Shown: positions 404 to 12,917 of the stretch, in pieces
How positions within the stretch are numbered: position 1 is the stretch's first letter
How the letters are laid out: every line of letters begins with the position of its first letter
DNA from: Myxococcota bacterium
GTDB lineage: Bacteria; Myxococcota_A; UBA796; UBA2385
Assembly: GCA_044344255.1 (NCBI GenBank)
Contig: JBIJDH010000056.1
Span: 1-12,919, forward strand
Length of the DNA: 12,919 nt
Direction of reading: 5' to 3'
Made by a program: the position numbers and the translations under genes
Notes under the pieces: generated by a model
Database searches by the model: none
What the model was told of the DNA's origin: nothing
Seen by the model: the letters and a program-made list of their open reading frames with translations, nothing else

Positions 404-3400
404 TCAACCCCTGGAGACCTCAACCACGACCCCAGCGACGGGCAGGTGAACGAAGCACCCGATCACAGGGCGCCCTGTCGCCGCGCTCACTGAGTCCGCG
501 TACGCACCGAGCTGTCCGGCATGGCCTGCGGCTGCCTCCACCACATCCGCTTCCCGACCCGGCGTGCTCTTGTGATCGACGACCACGAGGCCTGCTTCCG
601 TGTCGAGGACGAGGTCCGAGAACCCGCGCACGCCGCTGCCATCTTCGAGCGGATGGGCCAGGGGCCACTCGCGACACCATCGTGCGTCGGGCCAACGCTG
701 TGCGACCCACCCCTGGAGTCGATCCGACGCATCGAGCAGGTCCTTGGGAGGGAGCGCCCCGGCTACGCTCCAGCGCCCGAGGAGCCCTTCCGCGAGCGAG
801 TGCCGCTGCGCCGGATCGAGGTCCGCGCGGTCGGCGGCGAGGAACCCGTGTACGGCTTCGCCGAGCGCCGCCATCTCAGGGTTCCCGGTGAGCGTGAGGT
901 GGGGGCCGAGGCGCGTATGCGCGATTACGGCCCCGGCGTGGTCGAAGTCCGACGGCCGCCGGAATGCGGGCGGGTGCGCGGCGGGGCCTGGGGCGTCGAA
1001 ACCAGCGCCGGGCTCCGAATCGCGAACGACGGGATTCAACGGTGCGGGGCAGCGCAGCGTCGCCGTCACGACGCGGCCCGCCCATGTGGCGCTCGGCGTC
1101 GGCTCGTTCACCAGTGGGACTCCGCCCTCCTGCAGCAACTCGAGGAGCCCCTTCGTCAGCGCCCCGGCTCGCGTGGAGATCACGAGGCGGTCACGCGCAC
1201 GTGTCCATCCGACGTACAACACTCGGAGCTCCTGGCGCGCCTCCCGGGCCTCGGCCTCCACGGTGGCGGGGTGGGCGGCGAGGCGGGTGTGAAATGGCAG
1301 ACCGTTGTTTTTGGCCGCGTAGGGTTGGGGCCAAAAGCGCACCCAGCGGCCCGCGAGGGGTGCTGCGAAGTCGAAGCCGTCGATGTCACGGGCGACGCTC
1401 ACGCCGAGCGGGCTGCCAGTGAAGCGATTGAGCCCGTGCAGCACCACGATCGGCCACTCTAGCCCCTTTGCTGCGTGCCAGGTGCTCACCGCGACGGCCC
1501 CCCCGCCAGTGCGGACCGCCTGGGCGTCTTCGCCGTCATCGGCAAGGCGTCCGAGCCACGCGATGAGGCCAGCGGGCGTCGCGGCTGCGCCCGTGGCGGA
1601 GGCACCGGAAAGGTAGGTGACCGCGTGCGCACGCAGGCGATCCAGGTTCGCCAGGCGCGCCTCGGCGTCGCCCCAGCGCCGACAGAGCTCAGCGACGCGG
1701 GCGGCGTCTACCGCCAGGTCGAAGGCTTCGAGCGCGCCGGCACCGGGAGATCGCTCCCGAGCGGCAAGGACCCGCTGGACGACGTCCAACTTGGTGAGGG
1801 CGCCTGCGCCTGGCGTCTCAAGCAGTCGCGCGAGCCATGCGTCGAGGTCTCCGTCGCCTTCCGCGAACCGGGAGAGCTCCGCCTTCGCCAAGCTGTCCCG
1901 CCCGTCGACGAACAGCCGCAGCGCGGCCGTCGTGGCGATTGCCTCAGGGGTACTTAGGAGCCTTGCTCGTGGGAGCGCCGCGCGAATGCCAAGATTCTCC
2001 AGGGCGTCGGCAACCGCCGCGCACCCGTCATTCGTCCGGCACAAGACGGCGACGTCCCCGGCGCGAACCGCCCGCGCGTCGGCCTTGCCCTCGCGTACTC
2101 GGGTGGTGGGGTCGTCGAGGAGCTGCCGCACGCCCGCCGCGACAGCGTGAGCGTCGTTCTCGGTGCTCTTGGCGTCGAGGGTCCATCGCTCGAGAATGAC
2201 CCCGAGACCGGGGGCCTCGTCGAGGCGAGCCGGCTCGAGGCGAACCCGCTCCGCGGGGATCCCCTGCGATGGAAACGCCCGCGCGAAGAGGTCTGAGGTC
2301 AGCCGGACGAGCTCAGGCCGGCTCCTGTAGGAGTGCGGGAGGGTGCGCGGCTCCGTCTCCCCGAGGATGGCCCGGATCACCGCGTCCATCAGCGACGGGT
2401 CGGCGCCACGGAAGCCGAAGATGGCCTGCTTCTGGTCGCCGACCCACACGGAGCGGACAGCGAGCTCGGAGAGACGGAGAAAGATCGCGAGTTGGACCGG
2501 GCTGGTGTCCTGGAACTCGTCCACGAGGACCAGATCGAGCTCGCCCGCCAGGTGGGCACGGACGTCGGCGCGCCCGAGGAGCCCGAGTGCGAGCACCTCC
2601 TGGTCTGCGAAGTCGATCACGCCCCACGCGCGCTTGTGCGCCTGGTACACGTCGAGCGCCTGCCCGGCGACCGAGAACACGGTCCGGATCGCCGTCTCCA
2701 TGTCGGCTCGGAGTCGGGGGTGCCGATCCTGTGCGGCTGCGGCGGCGCGCACGGGGTCGGCGAGGGCGTCGGACTTCTGCGCCGGTGCGAGCTTCGCGAG
2801 CTTCGCCCACTCGCTCCAAAGGAGGTGCCGGCCTCGCCGGAGGTCCGCCAGCGCGCTCCCCGCGGTTTCAAGAGCCGTCGCGGTCTTCTTGGTGGTGTCC
2901 ACCGTCGTGTCTACGCTCGCGACGAACGTCGTGAGCGCCTCGACGAGGGCGCCGTCCAGATTCTCCCCTGCGACCGGCGTACCGAAGAGCTCGAGGACGC
3001 CGGCCACGCTGCGATCGGCGCACGCGGAGAGCTCGATGGTGCCGAGCCCATTGCTGCGCGCCGCGTCCAGGACGCTTCGCACCGCGGCGAGGCCGTCGAA
3101 TTCCCGCATGCGGGAGCGGAGGTCCTCGAACGTTCCGGTGACGGTGTCCGACAACACCGAGGAGAGCGCCTCGCGGAAGGACGAGGCGGAGACGGCCTCG
3201 TCGAGCACGCGCACGTCGGGAGAGAGCCCGAGTTCGAAGGAAAAGTCCGCCACGATTCGGCCACAGACCGCGTTCACCGTTCCGATTCGCGCGGCACCCA
3301 GGCGCTGGGCGTCGTCGAAGCGCCCCGCGGCTAGCAGCGTGCGCCGCGTGCGCTCCTTGAGCTCGGCGGCCGCCTTGTTCGTGAACGTCGTCGCGAGCAC

Positions 3401-3508
3401 CGCATCGGGGCGGACGCGCCCTTCGTCGATCTCCTTCTCCAGCAGTGTCGCCAGGGTGTGCGTCTTTCCGCTCCCCGCGCTCGCGGAGATGATCTCGATC
3501 TTGCTCAT
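404..3508 (-). CDS. addA: AddA/RecB-like ATP-dependent helicase-nuclease (UvrD/SF1A helicase plus C-terminal PD-(D/E)XK nuclease), about 1034 aa
   Basis: The likely start is ATG at 3508 (MSKIEIISASAGSGKT), which overlaps the upstream TGA as ATGA at 3505-3508. SF1 motifs: I ASAGSGKT, Ia TFTNKAAAELKER, II VLVDEFQDTS, III VGDQKQAIFGFRGAD, IV SYRS, IVa VAVLCRTN, V STWHAAKGLEW, VI ELRVLYVGWTRARDRL. RecB-type nuclease motifs: GEAVH, GFSDLV, VVDHKS, QLGAYA. The symbol means addA-like; orthology is not proven. Confidence 0.92.
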   Translation of the reverse strand: MSKIEIISASAGSGKTHTLATLLEKEIDEGRVRPDAVLATTFTNKAAAELKERTRRTLLAAGRFDDAQRLGAARIGTVNAVCGRIVADFSFELGLSPDVRVLDEAVSASSFREALSSVLSDTVTGTFEDLRSRMREFDGLAAVRSVLDAARSNGLGTIELSACADRSVAGVLELFGTPVAGENLDGALVEALTTFVASVDTTVDTTKKTATALETAGSALADLRRGRHLLWSEWAKLAKLAPAQKSDALADPVRAAAAAQDRHPRLRADMETAIRTVFSVAGQALDVYQAHKRAWGVIDFADQEVLALGLLGRADVRAHLAGELDLVLVDEFQDTSPVQLAIFLRLSELAVRSVWVGDQKQAIFGFRGADPSLMDAVIRAILGETEPRTLPHSYRSRPELVRLTSDLFARAFPSQGIPAERVRLEPARLDEAPGLGVILERWTLDAKSTENDAHAVAAGVRQLLDDPTTRVREGKADARAVRAGDVAVLCRTNDGCAAVADALENLGIRAALPRARLLSTPEAIATTAALRLFVDGRDSLAKAELSRFAEGDGDLDAWLARLLETPGAGALTKLDVVQRVLAARERSPGAGALEAFDLAVDAARVAELCRRWGDAEARLANLDRLRAHAVTYLSGASATGAAATPAGLIAWLGRLADDGEDAQAVRTGGGAVAVSTWHAAKGLEWPIVVLHGLNRFTGSPLGVSVARDIDGFDFAAPLAGRWVRFWPQPYAAKNNGLPFHTRLAAHPATVEAEAREARQELRVLYVGWTRARDRLVISTRAGALTKGLLELLQEGGVPLVNEPTPSATWAGRVVTATLRCPAPLNPVVRDSEPGAGFDAPGPAAHPPAFRRPSDFDHAGAVIAHTRLGPHLTLTGNPEMAALGEAVHGFLAADRADLDPAQRHSLAEGLLGRWSVAGALPPKDLLDASDRLQGWVAQRWPDARWCREWPLAHPLEDGSGVRGFSDLVLDTEAGLVVVDHKSTPGREADVVEAAAGHAGQLGAYADSVSAATGRPVIGCFVHLPVAGVVVEVSRG

Positions 3509-6141
3509 TCGCCACCCATGTTGCCGCAGAGATTTCCGAAGTTGCAGAAGCGGCAGGGAGGGGCGAGCCGGAGCCGCCCATCCTGGTCGATGTGAGAGGC
3601 CTTGATCGGCTCCGTTCCGTCGTCCCCCGCATTCCCTGACGCCTCGATCGCGCCCGCCTCGGTCGCTGCCCAGCGATCCTGCCACGCCCGCTCGAAGAGC
3701 TTCCAGGTCTCCGCAGGGCCTGGGCCCTTCACCGAAGTAGCGCCTGGGAAACGATCGGGCTCGGTGGTGTAGAGGCGCTGGTCCTGGAGGATGAAGTACG
3801 CGACCGCGGGGTATGGGGCCGTGGCGGTTGGCCGGACGAGGTGCGCGTAGGTCGCCAGCTGTGTCGAGACACCCGCGCCGAGCTCCTCGCGCCGGTACTT
3901 CGCGCCGCCCCACTTGAGGTCGATCACTGCCGGCGCCCCGTCGGTCGCGACAAGGTCGGGCGTGCCTTCCAAGGCGCCGCCCATCCCCGTGCCCGGGTAG
4001 GGCGTCTCGAGCGTCTCGATGGTGAGCCCCGCTTCCGCGAGGCTCCGGACGAGCGAGGCCACTGCGAGGCCGGCTACGCGTCGCACTCGCTCGCGTTCGT
4101 GCTCGGCGCCGGGCTGGAACAGCAGCGCCGCCCACCTCGGCGCCTCGGAGTCGAACAAGGCGACGGCTTCGGCCTCGGCGTCCTCGGGATCGGGGAGCGG
4201 GCCCGACTTCAAGACGCGCGCGATGATCTCGTGGACGAGGGAGCCGTGGAGCAGTTGCCCTTCCGGGAGCGCTGCGGTGGAGCCCCCATGCACTTTCGCC
4301 ACATGGGAGAGGGTCCACTGCAGAGAGCAGCCGACCAGTGTTGCGAGGCTCGACGGCGATTCCTTCTCACGGCGCAGGATGGTGCCGGGGCCTACCGTCC
4401 ACGCGCGGCGGGGTGCGGGTAGCGCCAGCGTGACGCGGGGCGTCGGCAGCCTCGCTGACATCGGGGCGCGCTGCACGAGCCGATCAGCGTGCGCGTCGCT
4501 CGGAATACCGGCCACAACCTCGTCCCAGAGCGGGTGGGGGTGAACGGGCGAACCATCCTCCCCGACCTCGGGGGAGACGAGCACGAGGCGTTCCGTCGTC
4601 TGCAGGAGGGGCCGACGCCAGCGTTCCGCGGAGATCATCGCGGCGGCCGCAGCGGAGGGGAGCTCCACGCCAATGGCAGCGAGCGCGCCTCTCTCCGCGC
4701 CGGAAAGCGGGAGGCGTGGCAGGGCCGGGGCGGCGTCCGCGCGGAACGACCACCAGACCACGCGGGCAGCGGGACCGACGAGCCCGGCGGGGCCCGCGAG
4801 TACGCGGAAGCCGGCCTGCGCGGGATGAGGCGCCTCGTGGCCGGCCGCGTCGGATGCGTCCTCCACGAGGCGGCGGAGCTGGGGAGCGCTGATCGGATCG
4901 AGCGCAGAGAGGTCGAGGAGGCGTCGGAAGGCCTTGGACTGGTTGAGGGCAGCGCCGTAGGCGACTGTCTCGTCCGTCGAAGTTGCCGCGCGGACCTGGA
5001 GCCAGCGGGCGAGCGCGTCCACGCGTCGGCGTGCCTCGGGTGCCGGGTAGCTGGCAGACTGGACGGTCGCGACCAGAAAGGTTTCGACGCGCGCGCGTAC
5101 GGTGGCGCGGCGCTCGGGTTCCTCCACCGCGGCGAGCGCCTCGGCAACCGCGGTCCGCCAGGCGTCGCTGTCGACCGCCGGCCACACCTGCAGCGCGGCC
5201 ACCAGCCGCCACGCCACGGAGCGGGGAATGGGGGAAATCGGGAGGGTGAGGAGCTCCAGCGCGCGCCGTGGGTCCGTGGGGGACCAGCCCAGGGCCAGGA
5301 GGAGCGGGAGGAGCTGGAGTAGGGAGCCATCTCCGTGCCCGGCGCCGCCGGTTGTTGGCAGCCCGTGGCGATGGAGCGCCGTGTCGAGCGTAGCGTCAGC
5401 GCCGATTATTACGGTGTCGACCCGATCAGGGTCGGCGGCGAGCCACGCGGCGATGGTCTCGGCGGCCTCGAGCGAACCGGCGGGCCGGACGAGCTGGAGG
5501 GATCCGTCACCCACGGGTCGGAAGCCTGGGGCGCGCGCAGCCGCGAGATCACCGCCCGCGGCTGCGGGCGCCGGAGGACATACACGGACCGTCGTCCCGC
5601 GAGCCCGCAGCGCATCCAGCACGTTCCGAACGAGGGGCGGCAGCGTCTCCTCGCGCTCGAGGAGGGTGACCAGGCCGACCTCGGGGTCGCGTGCGGCGAT
5701 CGCCCGGGCGACGACTTCGAGGCGATCGGGGGGGCCCGGCGGGACCTCCGCCGTGACCGCGGCGAGAGCGGAGAGCCGCGGCGAAACAGGTTCACCTTGC
5801 CATCCGGCGAGGCGTAGGGTGTCGCGCCAGCGCAGTAATTCGCGGGCCACGCCGAGCGGGTCAGAGAGGGTGGACTCGCTCCAGAAACCGGCCGTCGCGC
5901 GCAGCCCGGGCACGAGCGCGGCGGCGCGCGCGCCGTCGGGCAGCACGGGACCAGAGAGCCCGAGTGCCGTCTCCAGACGGTCCACCAGCCCCGAGGGACC
6001 CACGTGGGCGGTGCCAAACGACGCCGTTGCCGGTGGGAGCGCACCGGTGTCGAGGTCGGGTGCAAGGACGAATTCGAGGTGCAAGGTTGCCTCTAAAGCA
6101 TGCAGCGTCGGGAGTGGGTGCGGGGTCGTTGATGGTGTCAT
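3505..6141 (-). CDS. addB: AddB-like PD-(D/E)XK nuclease family protein with probable Fe-S cluster, 878 aa
   Basis: C-terminal nuclease motifs: ESPSSL..LVGCSLQW, HGSLVHEI, LEGTPDLV, VIDLKWG, QLATYA. The Cys pattern is one upstream Cys (4327-4329) plus C-x2-C-x5-C (CRFCNFGNLC, 3526-3555), typical of the AddB Fe-S staple. The N-terminus has no Walker A. The gene is coupled to the helicase gene by an ATGA overlap. The symbol means addB-like. Confidence 0.85.
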   Translation of the reverse strand: MTPSTTPHPLPTLHALEATLHLEFVLAPDLDTGALPPATASFGTAHVGPSGLVDRLETALGLSGPVLPDGARAAALVPGLRATAGFWSESTLSDPLGVARELLRWRDTLRLAGWQGEPVSPRLSALAAVTAEVPPGPPDRLEVVARAIAARDPEVGLVTLLEREETLPPLVRNVLDALRARGTTVRVCPPAPAAAGGDLAAARAPGFRPVGDGSLQLVRPAGSLEAAETIAAWLAADPDRVDTVIIGADATLDTALHRHGLPTTGGAGHGDGSLLQLLPLLLALGWSPTDPRRALELLTLPISPIPRSVAWRLVAALQVWPAVDSDAWRTAVAEALAAVEEPERRATVRARVETFLVATVQSASYPAPEARRRVDALARWLQVRAATSTDETVAYGAALNQSKAFRRLLDLSALDPISAPQLRRLVEDASDAAGHEAPHPAQAGFRVLAGPAGLVGPAARVVWWSFRADAAPALPRLPLSGAERGALAAIGVELPSAAAAAMISAERWRRPLLQTTERLVLVSPEVGEDGSPVHPHPLWDEVVAGIPSDAHADRLVQRAPMSARLPTPRVTLALPAPRRAWTVGPGTILRREKESPSSLATLVGCSLQWTLSHVAKVHGGSTAALPEGQLLHGSLVHEIIARVLKSGPLPDPEDAEAEAVALFDSEAPRWAALLFQPGAEHERERVRRVAGLAVASLVRSLAEAGLTIETLETPYPGTGMGGALEGTPDLVATDGAPAVIDLKWGGAKYRREELGAGVSTQLATYAHLVRPTATAPYPAVAYFILQDQRLYTTEPDRFPGATSVKGPGPAETWKLFERAWQDRWAATEAGAIEASGNAGDDGTEPIKASHIDQDGRLRLAPPCRFCNFGNLCGNMGGE

Positions 6142-6284: not shown

Positions 6285-6602
6285 TCAGGTCTTCAATTTC
6301 TCAAGGGACAAGCACACCTCGGTATGCGCGGCGCAGACTCCCACGTCGAGGATCGGCCGCCTGTAGGCGTGTCGCCCGGTCGCGTTGCCGCCGGCCTCAC
6401 CGAACCATCGACGGAAGGTCTCCGGCATGATGCCTCGCTGCACCGCGAATGCGCGTGCGCTGAGGCCGGATGTGCGCCAGGCCGCGATGAGGCGGCGGTG
6501 CTCGAGCAGTGGGTAGTGTCGGGTGCCCATCGGCAGATCCTCCAGCACGGAAGATCACCCGGGGGAGCCCGCGATGGCAGTGTCGCCAGCCTGGACGGTT
6601 AC
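6285..6602 (-). mobile_element. IS66-family remnant: putative left end plus truncated/degenerate tnpA (orfA)
   Basis: From ATG 6530, preceded by GGAGG, the frame reads MGTRHYPLLEHRRLIAAWRTSGLSARAFAVQRGIMPETFRRW. This matches the IS66 TnpA HTH pattern (I.AW..SGLS...F....G.....F..W). The minus strand from 6602 starts GTAACCGTCC, like IS66 GTAA termini, about 70 bp upstream of the ATG. No tnpB or tnpC follows. Confidence 0.65.
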
Positions 6603-6960
6603 GCCGAGTGGTCATCCACTGAGACCTCCTCGAGTCCATGATTGAGCAGAAGGTCGAGTGCGTCCTGCAGCGCGGCCGCGAGCACTACCCGGCAGCCTTC
6701 CCACCCATCATCAGCGACAACGAGCCGCAGTTCATCGCTCACGACTCTCAAGGAATTCATCAAGGTCACCGGGATGAGCCACGTTCGGGCCTCGCCCTAC
6801 TACCCACAGTCCAACTCTTCCAGAGCGGCGGAAGATCGAGCGCTACCATAAGGCGATCAAGGGCAACGCGATCCTCGTGTCCCCGCCCGCAACCCACGAT
6901 GCGCGCGACCGCAAGCTCGAGGCCGCGCGCGAGACCCGCGCCGAGCGCCGGCAAACCTCC
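6591..6960 (+). pseudogene. IS3-like transposase (rve integrase core) pseudogene fragment
   Basis: Stitching frames gives LDGY/RVVIH*DLLESMIEQKVECVLQRGREHYP..PIISDNEPQFIAHD/KEFIKVTGMSHVRASPYYPQSN/KIERYHKAIK...RDRKLEAARETRAERRQ. The DDE residues are recognisable (LDGY, ISDN, KIER). There is an in-frame TGA at 6620-6622, frameshifts near 6603, 6746 and 6815-6830, and an apparent internal deletion before RDRKLEAAR. Confidence 0.85.
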
Positions 6961-7128: not shown

Positions 7129-9141
7129 ATGCAGTTCCGTTCCGCCGCACTGGCCGTCGTCGTCGGCGTTGCCGCCGCGATTTTCGGGTTCGCGCTTGCC
7201 TGGCCTGACCCACAGAGCCTCTTCTTCGTGAGCCTTGCGGCGGGCGTCTGGTTGCTTTTTGGCGGCGGCCTACTCCTACATGTGCGTCGCGTCGAGTCCG
7301 CTGAACGCACGGTCGGGAGCGCGCAATCTCTCCCAGACCTCGAGAAGGGGCCCTGGGGTGACGTCGCCGCCACGGTCCGTGCCTCTCTCACGGGCCCGTC
7401 CGTTGCGGGCGGCGCCCCGCGCCGCACGCGGAGCGCGGCAGAAGCGCTGCGTCATGGCAACACCTCCGTGCATACCGCCATCTCCCCATTCCCGTGGCTG
7501 CACTCGGGCCAGGCAGTGCTCGTGTCCATCGGCTTGTTCGGCACCTTCTTCGGCCTCTCGCTCGGACTGCGGGAGTCGATCCCGTGTATCGACCCGCAGA
7601 ACGGCGAGCACGCGGCGTGTGTGGAGGAAGCGCTCGCCGCGGCGGACGATGGAGGCGAGGTCGACGGCGACACGCTCGCCATGCAGATGGGCATGTCGCG
7701 TCTGCTTGGCGGTGCGCGCACTGCGTTCAGCAAGTCGGTGGCCGGTATCGGGCTCGGCATGTCGTACATGCTTCTCTGGCGGCTCGCGGAGCGAAGGCGC
7801 AGCCGCCTCCTCCACTCCCTGACGAGGCGGGTGGATGGGTGGCATACGTTCGTCTCCCCGGACGAGCTCGCTCGAGAGGGCCTCGAACTGATCACGGCGG
7901 AGGTCCGCGCGCTCCGCGACGCCCAGCCTGACGGGGCTGCCCTCTCGGAAGCGGCGCGCCAGCTGGGTACGGGCGCGCGATCATTGGCGTCGGTCGCTGA
8001 TCGCCTCGGTGAGGTCTCCGCCACGCTGGGGGATTTCAAGGCAGAAACGATCGCCGCCGAGGTGTCGAAGGGCGTCAGTCGCGCCGTGGAGGACCGTCTC
8101 GCACCCACCTTGGACAACATCAGCAAGGAGCTTCGCATCCTGCACGACATGAAGCGTGAGCAGGACGAGGCCGTTGCGCGTCATCTCCGCACGCTTGTCG
8201 ACTCGCTCCGTGAGGATGCGCTGCTCCCGATATCGAGGGAAGTGGCGGCCACGAACGCGCAGACACGCGAGGTGGCCGAGGTCGTCCGGTCGCTGGGAGC
8301 GTCCGTGGCCGCCTCGACACAGGCGGTTCATCAGACCTCGGTGCAGATGGGCGAGCTGACGGTCAACCTCGCCGCGTTCCAGAAAGACGCGATTGGGCAG
8401 CTCAACGAGTTCGCGGACAGCCTGAACGGGACGCTTAGCACCTTCACCCGAGAGAGCGCCGCGAGCTTTCAGCAGATGGGCGCGGACATTCATGGGGCGG
8501 TGGGGGCCGCCGAGCTCGCGATGGTGGGACAGCGCGTGGCGTTCGAGCAGAGCGCCGCCGAGGCCCGAAACGCGTTCTCCGCGCAGACCGCCGCTTTGCG
8601 CGAAGCCGGTGAGGTGGCATCCTCCGAGATCAAGTCCGCGGGCCAGGAGGCGAGCCTCGCACTGCGAGTCGTGCGAACCGAGTTCGCCGATGCGCTATCG
8701 AGCCAGCGCGATGCGCTCGAGGGCATCCTCGGACAGCTCGAAGGGGCGTTCCGGCGGGATTTACAGGAGCGCGAGGATTTCGAGCGAAAGACCGCCGACG
8801 CCCTGAGGAAGCTAGAGAAGCTGATTGCGCGGACCGCTGCGACCGACGCGGAGCTGCGCCAAGTCTATACGGAGGCGAACCAGACCCTTGGCCGCGCGCT
8901 CGGAGAAACCGGAAGGCAGATCGCCACCCAACGCGAGGCCCTCGACGCGCTCCGCGAAGCGCTGGGCGATCATCTCCGTGCGGCGGCGGACGCGCACCGC
9001 AAGTTCCTCTCGGAGGAGGACAAGCACCTCACCGAGGTGCTCGGGAAGCTCTACGGGCTGGTGGGCGTGCTGGCAGAGACGACTCGAGTCGTTAACCAGC
9101 GCGGCGCGGCGCGGCAGGCGGCAGATGACTCCGCCCAGTGA
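7129..9141 (+). CDS. zorA: ZorA-like MotA/ExbB-family membrane protein with long alpha-helical cytoplasmic tail (Zorya defence), 670 aa
   Basis: TM motifs LVSIGLFGTFFGLSLGL and LLGGARTAFSKSVAGIGLG match the ZorA/MotA pattern (G..GTF.G...GL; LL.G...AF.xS..G). About 450 aa of Ala/Glu/Leu/Gln-rich helical tail follows. A MotB/ZorB-like gene lies in the same operon. Confidence 0.85.
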   Translation: MQFRSAALAVVVGVAAAIFGFALAWPDPQSLFFVSLAAGVWLLFGGGLLLHVRRVESAERTVGSAQSLPDLEKGPWGDVAATVRASLTGPSVAGGAPRRTRSAAEALRHGNTSVHTAISPFPWLHSGQAVLVSIGLFGTFFGLSLGLRESIPCIDPQNGEHAACVEEALAAADDGGEVDGDTLAMQMGMSRLLGGARTAFSKSVAGIGLGMSYMLLWRLAERRRSRLLHSLTRRVDGWHTFVSPDELAREGLELITAEVRALRDAQPDGAALSEAARQLGTGARSLASVADRLGEVSATLGDFKAETIAAEVSKGVSRAVEDRLAPTLDNISKELRILHDMKREQDEAVARHLRTLVDSLREDALLPISREVAATNAQTREVAEVVRSLGASVAASTQAVHQTSVQMGELTVNLAAFQKDAIGQLNEFADSLNGTLSTFTRESAASFQQMGADIHGAVGAAELAMVGQRVAFEQSAAEARNAFSAQTAALREAGEVASSEIKSAGQEASLALRVVRTEFADALSSQRDALEGILGQLEGAFRRDLQEREDFERKTADALRKLEKLIARTAATDAELRQVYTEANQTLGRALGETGRQIATQREALDALREALGDHLRAAADAHRKFLSEEDKHLTEVLGKLYGLVGVLAETTRVVNQRGAARQAADDSAQ

Positions 9142-10621
9142 CCTCTCCGCGGGCACGCTGTGGGGGAGCTTGCCCTCGCGGCAGGAGGCAGGCGCACTTC
9201 GGCCCGCCTTTCCGCAGCCGAGCACGCTGGACATCCGACCGTACGCGCTCGCGGCGCTCGCCGCCCAGCTCGCGCACGCTCCCAGCGCAGGCGGCCGCGA
9301 TGTCGGGGTTCCCTCATGGCCACCTCGTGGCTCGGGGGAGGTCTTCGCGGACATAGCCGCGGCCCGACGTGTCCTGGCGATCGAGGTGTGGACGCTGCTC
9401 GCTGATACGGAGTGGTGGGCCCGTGTGCGGACCGCGCGCGACCCGCTGGTGGCCGATGCCACCACCGCAGCCCGTGTGCTTTGGAGGCGCGCACACAGCG
9501 ATTCCGGACTTGCCTCCGACCTCCGCTGGGGTGCCGCGATGGTGCTCGGCAACCTCGGCTCGTCGACTCCGAAGGAGGTCGCGCGAACGTGGGAGAGTGC
9601 GCCGCCCGGTGACTTGCGAATTCTTGGTCTGATCGCCAATGATACTGGGATACCTCTCGCGCTCGACGCGATGTTCGCCGGGAGCTCCCCGCGCCGGTAT
9701 CTCCTCGATCGAGGATTCCCGGGCGTGCTCGGGATCGCGGACGACGCGGCCGTAGCTGGGATTCAGACGTTCCTGGCTGCGCCGTGGCCAACGCGCGAAC
9801 GATGGGTCATCGCCTGCCTGGAGGACCTCCCCCTGGCGCGCCGAGATGCGTGCGTCGACGAGATTGTCCGGTCACTCTCCGACGACGACGCGATCCAATT
9901 CGCGGCGCTGCGGGCGCGGATCCTCGCCTGGTACGCGGACGAAGGCATTTCACGTCTGTCGAGCTGGGCACAGACACGCCTTCGGCGGTGGGACGGGATG
10001 GCGAGTTGGGACGACATCGAGCGTTTCGTGGAGCGGATCTTCAACCGGCGCGTCTCTGATCTCGACCGGATGATCGGCGCACCGGCGACCGACGATGCGT
10101 TCGTCCAGGCAAGGTGGGCGCTCGGTCGAGTGGCGATCTGGTCCAACTACTCGGCGCAGTTCCGACGCGTTCGGATCTTCGTGCCGCAGCGTCAGCTGAA
10201 GCTGTTCCGGCGCCCGGACGGTAGCCTGCCCGAGAACGTGTCGCCCGCCGAAGGCGCGGAGCCCCCGTCGGCTATCTTCGCGGTGGGCGGCTACATCGTG
10301 GTGCAGTACCTCTATGACGACGTGGCCCGAGCCAACCGCGGCGGCGGCGCGCGGCGCCCGACGCTGTTCTACAAGCGTGCGCCCCCGGATGGCAGCGCAC
10401 CCAATGCAACGGATCACCCCTCCGGCATCGGCCTCGACCAGTTGGCGCCGGGCTACCTTTCGCGCCTCTCGGTTACCGCCCGTGTCGAGTGCTGGGGCGA
10501 ACTGTGGCAGCGCCGCCTCTACGAGACCATCGAGCGCCTCAACATCCCCCGGAACGCCGGCCTCGCGCGCTTCCGCGGGTTCTTGCCGAAACACCTCAAC
10601 GCCAATGGTCTGCCGAGGTAG
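9125..10621 (+). CDS. zorC: EH-signature-domain / ZorC-like protein, about 498 aa
   Basis: The probable start is ATG 9125, overlapping the zorA 3' end by 17 nt. The C-terminal half (LSSWAQTRLRRW..SWDDIERFVERIF..RVAIWSNYSAQFRRVRIF..AIFAVGGYIVVQY..LWQRRL) follows, as I recall it, the EH_Signature layout of ZorC-like proteins. Its position inside a zorA/zorB operon supports the call. Needs HMM confirmation. Confidence 0.65.
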   Translation: MTPPSDLSAGTLWGSLPSRQEAGALRPAFPQPSTLDIRPYALAALAAQLAHAPSAGGRDVGVPSWPPRGSGEVFADIAAARRVLAIEVWTLLADTEWWARVRTARDPLVADATTAARVLWRRAHSDSGLASDLRWGAAMVLGNLGSSTPKEVARTWESAPPGDLRILGLIANDTGIPLALDAMFAGSSPRRYLLDRGFPGVLGIADDAAVAGIQTFLAAPWPTRERWVIACLEDLPLARRDACVDEIVRSLSDDDAIQFAALRARILAWYADEGISRLSSWAQTRLRRWDGMASWDDIERFVERIFNRRVSDLDRMIGAPATDDAFVQARWALGRVAIWSNYSAQFRRVRIFVPQRQLKLFRRPDGSLPENVSPAEGAEPPSAIFAVGGYIVVQYLYDDVARANRGGGARRPTLFYKRAPPDGSAPNATDHPSGIGLDQLAPGYLSRLSVTARVECWGELWQRRLYETIERLNIPRNAGLARFRGFLPKHLNANGLPR

Positions 10622-10624
10622 CCG

Positions 10625-10969
10625 ATGACCGAATCCCATCCTGACCTCGCCGACCTCGTCGCTCGGATAGCGTCCTTCAACGACGTATGGCACGCGCTAC
10701 GCGACCTCTGCCCCGACGAGGACGCGGACGAGCCGAGCCTCGCGGGGCTGCGAGACCTCAAGTCCGTCTTGCAAGCTCGCCTTCTTCGGGATCCCCGCCG
10801 CGTCGCCTTCCTCATACGTGACGAGGATCCTCGTCTCGTGGAGTCCTGCTACACCGTGGCGCTCTACGAACCCCTCGCGGGACGCCGCGATGCGTGCCAC
10901 CTCCCCGAGCGGGTGGCGCGCCGCGTGCTGACGGAGCGCGAGATCAGCGCGCTTCTGGTGGAGCGATGA
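10625..10969 (+). CDS. Hypothetical 114-aa soluble protein inside the Zorya-like operon
   Basis: ATG lies 3 nt after the zorC-like TAG, with GAGGT upstream. Its TGA overlaps the zorB-like ATG (ATGA at 10966-10969). Composition is globular-protein-like (RDLKSVLQARLLR, YTVAL, DACHLPERVA). Confidence 0.8.
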   Translation: MTESHPDLADLVARIASFNDVWHALRDLCPDEDADEPSLAGLRDLKSVLQARLLRDPRRVAFLIRDEDPRLVESCYTVALYEPLAGRRDACHLPERVARRVLTEREISALLVER

Positions 10970-12096
10970 GCGAGCCCCGCCCGGAGGTAGACGGCGCTGG
11001 CGGAGAGGAGGAAATTCCCTGGCTGTCGTTCTCCGACGCGGTCACGGCGCTGCTGTTTGTGTTCATCGCGACCACGTTCTGGTTCATGTTCGAGCTTCGC
11101 CTCGCCGTGGCAAAGCAGAACGCCGAGACCGCGCGCCTCACCGGCGCGAACGTTGCTGCCGGGCAGCTCCTTCAGGGAGTGGAGGTATGTCTCACCCAGC
11201 GCACAACCGAAGGCGTTCGTGTTCGTCCGGTGGTCGAAAAGGACTCCCGGACAATGTCCCTCTACATCGAGCCGCGGGCGAGTACGGTTGTGGAGTGGTT
11301 CCAAGTTTGTAGCGCGCAGATCACGGATGACGCCGCGGCCGTTGTGGACATGGCTCGCGACTGCCTCGCGAAGGAAGTTCCTGGCCTGACCGACGACTAC
11401 ACCGTAGTCCTCACGCTGGAGGGCCACACTGACGCCCGCCCTCCGATGTCGAACTGCCGGGAGCGGTTCCCCTCGAATTGGGAGCTGTCGGGCGCACGGG
11501 CAGGCGCCGCGTTGCGCCGCTTGCTCTGCGAAGACGGACAGTGCACGCCGGATGCGCTGGCGAGCGCTGCTGATCTCCGTGCTCTGGCACAGGACCGCGA
11601 CCGCCTCCAGGTTGTAGCAGCCGGGCGCGCCGAGTCGATCCCCGCTTGGCGCGCGCTCTGCGCCACCGACTGGACGGGGGCCGCCGCGCTGCCGGAGCTC
11701 GATCGGGCTGTCTGTGCGGCATTGTCCGACGAAGACACTCCGCTTTCGACGCGCGTCGCATCCGTACGGACAGAGATCTCCGCCGCGCTCGGGACCGGGT
11801 ACTTCGGCCGCACGCTCGACACATCCGATCTCGCGCTCGTCGCCTGGGCCAACGATCCGGGGTGCATGGGGGGCAAGGGAGATGCTGCCATCTGTGCGGA
11901 GCGGTTCAGACGACTTCGGCGGGTGGACATGCGCGTGGATCTGCGGCCGCGCCCAGGTGCTGCGGAAGATCGGGCGCGTGCCGACCGTAAGGCGCTAGGC
12001 GCGCGGCCGAATATTGTTCCCACGTCGCGGGGCGCTGCGGTCGGCGCGACACTCGAGGGCATCGCCAATGTTCCGGAGCTTGGCGAGGATGAATGA
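10966..12096 (+). CDS. zorB: ZorB-like MotB/OmpA-family protein with Cys-rich periplasmic region, about 376 aa
   Basis: The start is ATG 10966 (ATGA overlap). A single N-terminal TM, WLSFSDAVTALLFVFI, carries the conserved ion-conducting Asp (D24, 11035-11037). OmpA-like peptidoglycan-binding motifs are LEGHTD, NWELSGARA, AAGRAESIP and RRVDMRV. Confidence 0.88.
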   Translation: MSEPRPEVDGAGGEEEIPWLSFSDAVTALLFVFIATTFWFMFELRLAVAKQNAETARLTGANVAAGQLLQGVEVCLTQRTTEGVRVRPVVEKDSRTMSLYIEPRASTVVEWFQVCSAQITDDAAAVVDMARDCLAKEVPGLTDDYTVVLTLEGHTDARPPMSNCRERFPSNWELSGARAGAALRRLLCEDGQCTPDALASAADLRALAQDRDRLQVVAAGRAESIPAWRALCATDWTGAAALPELDRAVCAALSDEDTPLSTRVASVRTEISAALGTGYFGRTLDTSDLALVAWANDPGCMGGKGDAAICAERFRRLRRVDMRVDLRPRPGAAEDRARADRKALGARPNIVPTSRGAAVGATLEGIANVPELGEDE

Positions 12097-12148: not shown

Positions 12149-12596
12149 CTATGCGAGGTAGGTCCGATGCCCCTCCGTGAGCCCGCGGACACGCCGATGC
12201 CGGTCGAGCCCCAGCACGCCGAGCGCGTGGTCGTCGAGCGAGGCCGAGACAACCACCCGCCCGTCATCCTTCACGGTGATGAGCCCCACGTCGAAGGCGG
12301 CGTCCAGGTGGGCTGTGCGCAACAGCCCGTTGTACACGTCGAGGCGCTCCCGGTCGGTCTCGCAGTCCTTCCAGGGGCGGGCGTGGCTGGCGCGCAGCAG
12401 GCGGGGGACGGCGAGCCCGGAGATGGCGCAGCGCCCCTCCCAGAGGTCGAGCAGGCCGCCGCGGTAGAGGTCCTGGCCCACGCGCTCGACGACGAGCCGC
12501 TCGGCCTCGGTGCTGCGGGGGAGGCTGGCGGTGCGGGTTGCGATGGTGTCGTAGAGCGCGTCGGGGAGGGGTCTGGGCCAGGAGGAGGGCGCGGCG
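12149..12596 (-). pseudogene. HNH endonuclease (HNH_2-type) fragment, 5'-truncated and frameshifted
   Basis: TEAERLVVERVGQDLYRGGLLDLWEGRCAISGLAVPRLLRASHARPW...LDVYNGLL..HLDAAFD.GLIT is the typical RxGQ..R..C..SG..L.ASH..PW..NGL family pattern. An extra C at 12568-12571 breaks RRALLLAQT/LPDAL. The frame ends YLA-TAG where homologues usually continue YLxWHR. No start codon of its own is evident. Confidence 0.8.
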
Positions 12597-12917
12597 CTCC
12601 AGGTCGTCGAGGGTGCGGGCGAGGGCCTCGTCACCCCCCTCGTCGAGATCTGCCCACAGACAGGCGGTGGCCACGACGCCGGCCTTGGTGCCGTCGCGCC
12701 CCTCGCGCACCGCGCCGGCCACCCAGACGTGGCGCCCTACGGGGGCTCGGTAGGCGGCGAGGGCCTCGGCGCTGCCGAACCACTCGCGGCGCTCAAGCTG
12801 CGGCCGACCCCACCGGGGGCCGCCGTCGGGGCCTGCGGGGAGCGGGCGCTCCGGTCGCATCACCCGGACCTCGATCTCCCGGCCCGGGGTCAGGAGCGTG
12901 GGCGGGAACAGGATCGA
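12597..12917 (-). pseudogene. RepB-type DNA primase (AEP-like) N-terminal fragment, 5' end outside the window
   Basis: The frame is open from the window edge: ..PGREIEVRV..WFGSAEAL..HVWVAGAVREGRDGTKAGVVATACLWADLD. This resembles the RepB-primase N-terminus (iEvR; vy.g...R; G.k..V; lwaDlD). The downstream SG.G.H motif is absent because the frame runs into HNH-like sequence. Confidence 0.5.

Follow-up and report, generated by a model that had tools for sequence, protein, structure and literature searches.

What does a soluble protein of 114 residues do in a Zorya operon that has no adjacent zorD? The question is raised by a locus of a Myxococcota bacterium in which a short open reading frame of no named family (hereafter X) lies between a zorC-like gene and zorB (Table 1). 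The window analysed here is the whole stretch of DNA, 12,919 nucleotides in length, and forms one entire contig; the source genome comprises 8.18 Mb with a GC content of 71%. In the type I system of Escherichia coli, ZorAB senses attack and recruits the DNA-binding ZorC and the nuclease ZorD (PMC11946911), and in type II it recruits the nickase ZorE (PMC11890865); type III carries ZorF (DUF3348) and ZorG (DUF2894) (PMC8565338). Recruitment of a nuclease by ZorAB has been proposed for all subtypes (PMC11890865; PMC11946911), and ZorAB alone is reported to give no protection in types I and II (PMC8565338; PMC11946911). The comparative analysis described below indicates that X is very probably a true component of the system.

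Table 1. Features of the window and examples of the TPR-rich sister proteins
Feature	Location	Strand	Evidence
AddAB-like pair, UvrD helicase with PD-(D/E)XK nuclease	404-4318 (frame; likely start near 3500)	minus	
AddAB-like pair, PD-(D/E)XK protein	3505-6141	minus	
zorA, 670 aa, membrane head and long helical tail	7129..9141	+	PADLOC ZorA1 PDLC00597, E 5.7e-35
zorC-like, 498 aa	9125..10621	+	PADLOC ZorC1 PDLC00618, E 4.3e-15
X, 114 aa, soluble, unnamed Zorya-linked family	10625..10969	+	ORF, ATG to TGA
zorB, 376 aa, one TM segment and OmpA-like domain with insertions	10966..12096	+	PADLOC ZorB1, E 1e-13
HNH_2 restriction-nuclease-like gene, seemingly broken across two frames	12149-12917	minus	HNH_2, E 5.8e-08
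Sister protein (set L102-L111)	L104:6745-10515	minus	
Sister protein (set L102-L111)	L106:7814-11608	plus	
Sister protein (L028)	L028:1045-4772	minus	

The operon is recognized as Zorya by a MotA-like zorA with a long tail and a MotB-like zorB, with zorC and X between them; zorA is its first gene and zorB its last. The placing of X in the preliminary description holds, since PADLOC names the neighbours ZorA, ZorC and ZorB, and a Pfam OmpA match of zorB (E 0.0011) falls below the cut-off. The zorC-like gene probably starts at the ATG at 9125, giving a 17-base overlap with the end of zorA. X is packed tightly on both sides, as described earlier: its stop codon overlaps the start of zorB (ATGA, 10966), and 3 bases separate the zorC stop from its own start, which keeps the reading frame of zorC. 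Its GC content by codon position (0.78/0.45/0.79) is similar to that of the neighbouring genes, and it is single-copy in the source genome. The protein is without a TM segment, as had been said (top 19-residue hydropathy 0.57), and is acidic, with a pI of 5.2 against a family median of 6.5. A sequencing or assembly error at the zorC stop is ruled out, because the junction is spanned by contigs of run X4 (9644-11111, 1 synonymous difference), from the same study as a possible source run, and of run X5 (9772-11238, 0 differences), from outside that study. X as a nonsense-split piece of zorC is ruled out as well, given a stand-alone family without ZorC homology and a junction seen in two runs, and so, short of a very remote link, is X as a split-off ZorC tail (hhalign 0.3% against E. 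coli ZorC as a single-sequence template). X is a genuine gene in its own right. The contigs of RNA runs X19 and X20 that lie on the operon are short, one of them within X (10662-10812), and are no proof of transcription.

The family to which X belongs is sizeable. A first homologue search yielded two relatives (56-61% identity, 114 and 126 aa), a 7-row profile 16 proteins of 109-127 aa and an 18-row profile at least 196 representatives (50% identity clusters) at E <= 0.001. Family details are taken from the best 150 of the 196 representatives, with 163 proteins examined in all; 139 of these 163 have 90-140 aa, and the longest among those examined has 272 aa. Named members are annotated as hypothetical proteins in Nostoc, Aphanizomenon, Dolichospermum, Cuspidothrix, Anabaena and deltaproteobacteria. 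In one protein (P0157) the first half of X is joined to a sequence that by eye resembles a ZorA tail, through deletion or misassembly. As the preliminary description held, no named family applies: Pfam gives no recurring family in any of 122 members, PADLOC, NCBIfam and PHROGs give no match for the 18 members scanned, and neither PDB sequences nor the models of ZorE, ZorF, ZorG, DUF3348, DUF2894 and HNH match. In Atlas the clusters near X are unnamed and reach 0.89 at most, which makes them no more than leads, and a named cluster was not found there. One scan of viral contigs with one cyanobacterial member gave no match, and among plasmids X occurs in one record only. The YkyB-like family PF14177 may share with X an Asn on the first helix, a Lys on the second and a late His-x-Pro, but sequence-to-profile comparison gives no support to the resemblance: 0/122 members match, and the YkyB model does not pick up X in X-carrying genomes.

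Conservation within the family is concentrated in a few positions. Among the 163 unselected rows, Asn19 and Lys46 are present in 100%, Trp22 and Gln50 in 99%, His92 in 98%, Leu53 and Pro94 in 96%, Ala90 in 92%, Asp66 in 87% and Arg43 in 77%; the near-invariant set comprises Asn19, Trp22, Lys46, Gln50, His92 and Pro94. An alignment of 122 rows, picked from 154 of 95-135 aa with near-copies and partial rows left out, has a mean column identity of about 20% and keeps Asn19, Lys46, Gln50 and His92 in 122/122, an invariance that is partly circular because profile searches favour rows keeping these four residues. The DACHLP motif, reported earlier as C-terminal with its Asp and His as possible functional residues, is present at residues 89-94, 20 residues before the end and not at the very C-terminus; conservation agrees with a function for His92 but not for Asp89, which is found in 69% of rows with Asn in 23%.

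The AlphaFold2 model of X (pLDDT 92, pTM 0.85) predicts helices at residues 6-28, 37-54, 95-101 and 104-110 and strands at 61-66, 75-84 and 87-94, arranged as helix-helix-strand-strand-strand-helix-helix, and the segment RDLKSVLQARLLR (residues 43-55), rightly described as helical, lies almost wholly inside the predicted helix 37-54. Foldseek comparison of the model with the PDB and BFVD returned no match at E <= 0.001. In the VIA fold search the best row (Z 7.9) covers the helical hairpin only, the rows spanning residues 1-60, and nothing rises above background. The strand half is barely covered by the VIA rows, so that the unmatched fold is at most a candidate for a new one. Asn19, Lys46, Gln50 and His92 appear to line one pocket. 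Since the conserved set contains no invariant acidic pair for metal binding, metal-independent chemistry is proposed.

Matches to X occur in 6/182 genomes of the window's class (five as stand-alone X and the sixth, G445, as part of a long gene), in 3/401 genomes of a phylum sample (2/400 in a repeat, with no new locus) and in 2/6 genomes of the class of G505. All nine full-length stand-alone copies with readable context adjoin Zorya genes, and no stand-alone X away from Zorya is present in any locus read. The order X-zorA-zorB-zorC is found in G008, G015, G383, G505 (one organism, with loci L001-L004) and plasmid AP018320 of Nostoc sp. HK-01 (locus NIES2109_60790-60760), the one plasmid on which cyanobacterial synteny is based, where the locus matches the X profile at E 1.6e-34; X-zorA stands at a contig end in G063. 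The order zorA-zorC-X-zorB is that of the present locus and of G021, in which ZorC was identified by position and alignment without a PADLOC match, and zorC-X-zorA-zorB is that of G509. X is thus directly before zorA in 7/9 loci, directly after zorC in 3/9 and before zorB in 2/9, so that the coupling to zorB, earlier taken to suggest stoichiometric co-expression, is a local quirk; X is the first operon gene in 6/9 loci and internal in 3/9. Its reading frame overlaps or abuts zorA, zorB or zorC in three gene orders, and X stays with the Zorya operon through rearrangement. The link to Zorya claimed earlier is therefore upheld for stand-alone X, the homologues of which do not lie mostly outside Zorya loci; a sister form of the domain, described below, does occur outside.

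An adjacent zorD is lacking, as expected from the preliminary description, in all six X loci with readable flanks (those of G008, G015 and G063 end too soon). In the present operon zorA comes first, and downstream of zorB there is an HNH fragment on the opposite strand before the contig ends. The ZorD model recovers only generic SNF2 cores (profile 437-916) in G000 (this genome, 95% complete), G008 and G015; this test consists of one model, to which the canonical control G453 matches from profile position 263. In G021 a ZorD-like gene lies on a different contig. The HNH fragment (12149-12634), on the strand opposite to zorB, matches generic HNH models and not ZorE (PADLOC); the seemingly broken gene of which it is part is convergent with zorB. 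Elsewhere, the Nostoc X locus is followed by a DpdE/DrmD-like helicase 424 bases away and that of G021 by Septu on the other strand. A defence island in G383 (L015:1-12092) contains a UvrD-type helicase gene, X-zorA-zorB-zorC and next, on the same strand and with abutting frames, an Azaca-like triple with ZacB and ZacC matches (identified from 10.1101/2025.07.10.664194). In the zorA-zorC-X-zorB loci (Table 1; L012:5716-6813), ZorB is about 130-150 aa longer than usual and has cysteine-containing periplasmic insertions.

The ZorC of the present locus departs in its EH residues from that of five other X loci. At the column of the EH glutamate it has Gln, and in the alignments it has no EH histidine (Glu400 and His443 in E. 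coli, essential in type I; PMC11946911), whereas both residues are kept in the ZorC of G383, G015, G008, G509 and Nostoc; Pfam EH_Signature matches the G383 and Nostoc copies and not this one. In X loci, complete ZorC proteins stop 23-73 residues beyond a conserved WQ (37 in this copy), against ~100 residues after Trp458 in the 560-residue E. coli protein, the C-terminal domain of which (487-560) is essential (PMC11946911). With both EH residues lost from its ZorC, the present locus may differ in working from typical X-A-B-C loci, or may be decaying.

The ZorA model detects 29/182 class genomes, 5 of which carry X; 17 of the 24 X-less loci were read, none with an intact X. A quick ZorA tree (26 rows, SH-aLRT support only, careful search unfinished) places seven X loci together with G493, G492 and G477 (support 94) and G505 with G509 separately (97). 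G493 (L060:1660-5205) retains an 85-aa remnant at the site of X without the conserved residues (profile E 0.25), beside a ZorC of 262 aa, and its sister G492 (L061:7236-10263) has no X and a ZorC of 243 aa; X thus decays together with the EH half of ZorC, as one event in two sisters. With intact zorAB and a ZorC without the EH half, these two loci represent a further reduced Zorya form. In G477, sister to the present locus, the ZorC-like gene is full-length and X is absent. In G001, G005, G045 and G440 (L066, L068, L063 and L077), zorAB occurs with a ZorC-like gene of ~400 aa, called from motifs by eye and without a profile match, and neither X nor zorD follows. Three further loci (L065, L070 and L075) have zorAB and no ZorC-like gene. 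The zorAB loci that lack both X and zorD show that X is not needed by every ZorD-less Zorya; it is limited to one lineage of these systems and not common to all.

Comparison with the published types places these loci apart from each of them. Like type I (zorABCD, E. coli NCTC9026; PMC11946911), the present locus has homologues of ZorA, ZorB and ZorC in one tight operon; unlike it, the order is zorA-zorC-X-zorB with an additional 114-aa gene that belongs to no named family, an adjacent zorD and a ZorD-type match in the genome are lacking, and ZorC is short, without the C-terminal domain and without the EH residues. Type II (zorABE; PMC11890865) similarly combines ZorAB with a small soluble partner that is a proposed effector; however, the nickase ZorE is of the HNH kind, X gives no match to HNH or PADLOC ZorE models, and ZorC is present. 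Type III, as described in PMC8565338, likewise joins the Zorya core to accessory proteins of unknown function without ZorD or ZorE, but X matches neither the ZorF/ZorG models nor DUF3348/DUF2894. The literature searched describes no fourth Zorya type and no X-like protein; subscription papers and supplements, which may bear on this, lie outside that scope. Within it, the X loci are an undescribed Zorya variant with an unnamed component. New findings are the rearrangements of gene order, the restriction to certain lineages, the decay that X shares with ZorC and the occurrence of a sister domain on TPR-rich proteins.

The sister domain came from G445, in which an X-like domain starts a long, frameshifted gene. 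A search with this domain finds 21/182 class genomes, mostly in frames of >1,000 aa, and its profile aligns with that of X (hhalign 96.9%, E 2e-10). The two are homologous and have in common the Asn, Lys, Gln, DAxH and predicted topology; 17/17 sister rows keep the Asn, Lys, Gln and His, and the sister model (pLDDT 88.5) has the topology of X plus one extra N-terminal helix. It is unlike X in its fusion to TPR and in having Asn-Pro-Thr and Tyr where X has Asn-x-x-Trp and Arg. The sister proteins are stand-alone, 1,170-1,370 aa long, with TPR repeats (Pfam TPR_19, E 1e-11, in 1/5 scanned) and a strand-rich middle that is propeller-like by eye. Among ten full-length sequences, 11 of the 17 invariant columns are inside the X-like N-terminal domain, and a conserved N-terminal domain on a repeat scaffold is a usual layout of an effector. 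No Zorya genes or conserved neighbours surround them in 10/10 loci. They are a candidate one-gene defence or conflict family. Stand-alone X and the sister form share no genome among the 182 (0/5 X genomes), which argues against an adaptor that binds like to like.

The absence of ZorD, the shortness of ZorC and the retention of the polar set even on an unrelated scaffold favour X as a catalytic effector recruited in place of ZorD. We hold this reading tentatively, at a little short of an even chance, with a metal-independent nuclease as its most likely form; ZorD and ZorE, the Zorya effectors tested so far, are both nucleases, which is the ground for reading X as one. The variant comprises ZorA, ZorB and a short ZorC, with X as the fourth gene and no adjacent zorD. 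In types I and II the ZorAB motor responds to phage attack at the envelope and draws in soluble partners by way of the ZorA tail (PMC11946911; PMC11890865), and by analogy the motor of the variant would do likewise. ZorC might bring X to the activated motor, where concentrated X could attack nucleic acid by metal-independent His/Lys chemistry at a predicted active site of Asn19, Lys46, Gln50 and His92, the substrate and the chemistry being the weakest steps. The adjacency of X to Zorya genes, the missing zorD, the invariant residues, the effector-like layout and the single joint decay with ZorC all favour such a role. Against it, no fold match points to a chemistry, the acidic X gives no sign of a basic nucleic-acid-binding surface, conserved polar residues can be structural and their invariance is partly circular. 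The loci with neither X nor zorD, the X-less G477, the loss of both EH residues from the present ZorC and the ZorD-like gene elsewhere in G021 also count against it.

A broader proposal, which we regard as rather unlikely, is that X founds an undescribed superfamily, made up of small enzymes of immunity whose active site is Asn-Lys-Gln-His and whose fold is unmatched in the PDB, and that these serve as effectors both in a ZorD-less fourth Zorya type and in one-gene TPR-rich sensors. If so, Zorya would have an output that is neither HNH nor SNF2. A widespread ZorABC form without ZorD or ZorE is a direct test of the nuclease-recruitment rule, and X, a soluble protein of 114 residues, has a confident model and four defined positions for mutation. 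The TPR-rich proteins provide a simpler second system in which to look for the activity, and through them another family of one-gene defence may come to light.

The alternative that survives best, though unlikely, is that X is a non-catalytic adaptor or ZorC partner that replaces the missing ZorC C-terminal domain and connects ZorC with DNA or with the tail of ZorA. The early ends of ZorC in X loci relative to E. coli, the 3/9 loci with X directly after zorC (in frame here) and the joint decay are as such a partner would have it. However, X shows no homology to E. coli ZorC, the tail included, no ZorC-X fusion occurs among the best 150 profile matches (nor in a weak search of longer proteins), short ZorC-like proteins without X exist, and the same residues are invariant in TPR proteins with no ZorC nearby. 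Between adaptor and effector, the evidence leans to a protein with an active site.

Less probable still is a switch, in which a pocket of Asn, Lys, Gln, His and Trp binds a ligand or signal and X keeps ZorABC inactive or adjusts it, with ion flow or DNA binding by ZorC as the output and no enzyme involved. An invariant polar pocket suits a ligand no less than catalysis, X often stands first in the operon, and the survival of ZorABC-like loci without X is what a regulator would predict; the switch is opposed by the lack of protection from ZorAB alone in types I and II and by the failure of X to match any ligand-binding fold. That X acts on its own, as a one-gene defence or as cargo carried along by descent with this Zorya lineage, is very improbable: the X loci form one ZorA clade and one pair, so the nine are not independent, and the domain works elsewhere without Zorya, but its consistent place beside Zorya genes, the overlapping or abutting frames in three orders and hosts as distant as cyanobacteria and deltaproteobacteria speak against a passenger. 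We give the least credence to a DNA-binding autoregulator of operon transcription, which the small size, the first position in most loci and two top VIA rows (CsoR/CstR repressors, Z 7.5 and 7.2) would fit, because those rows align the helical hairpin only at background Z and X is internal in 3/9 loci, acidic and without a regulator family match.

Upstream of the operon, two short ORF pieces directly before zorA (6285-6851), which by eye resemble insertion-sequence remnants, have no Pfam match. Beyond them, the AddAB-like pair (404-6141, minus strand) points away from the Zorya operon.
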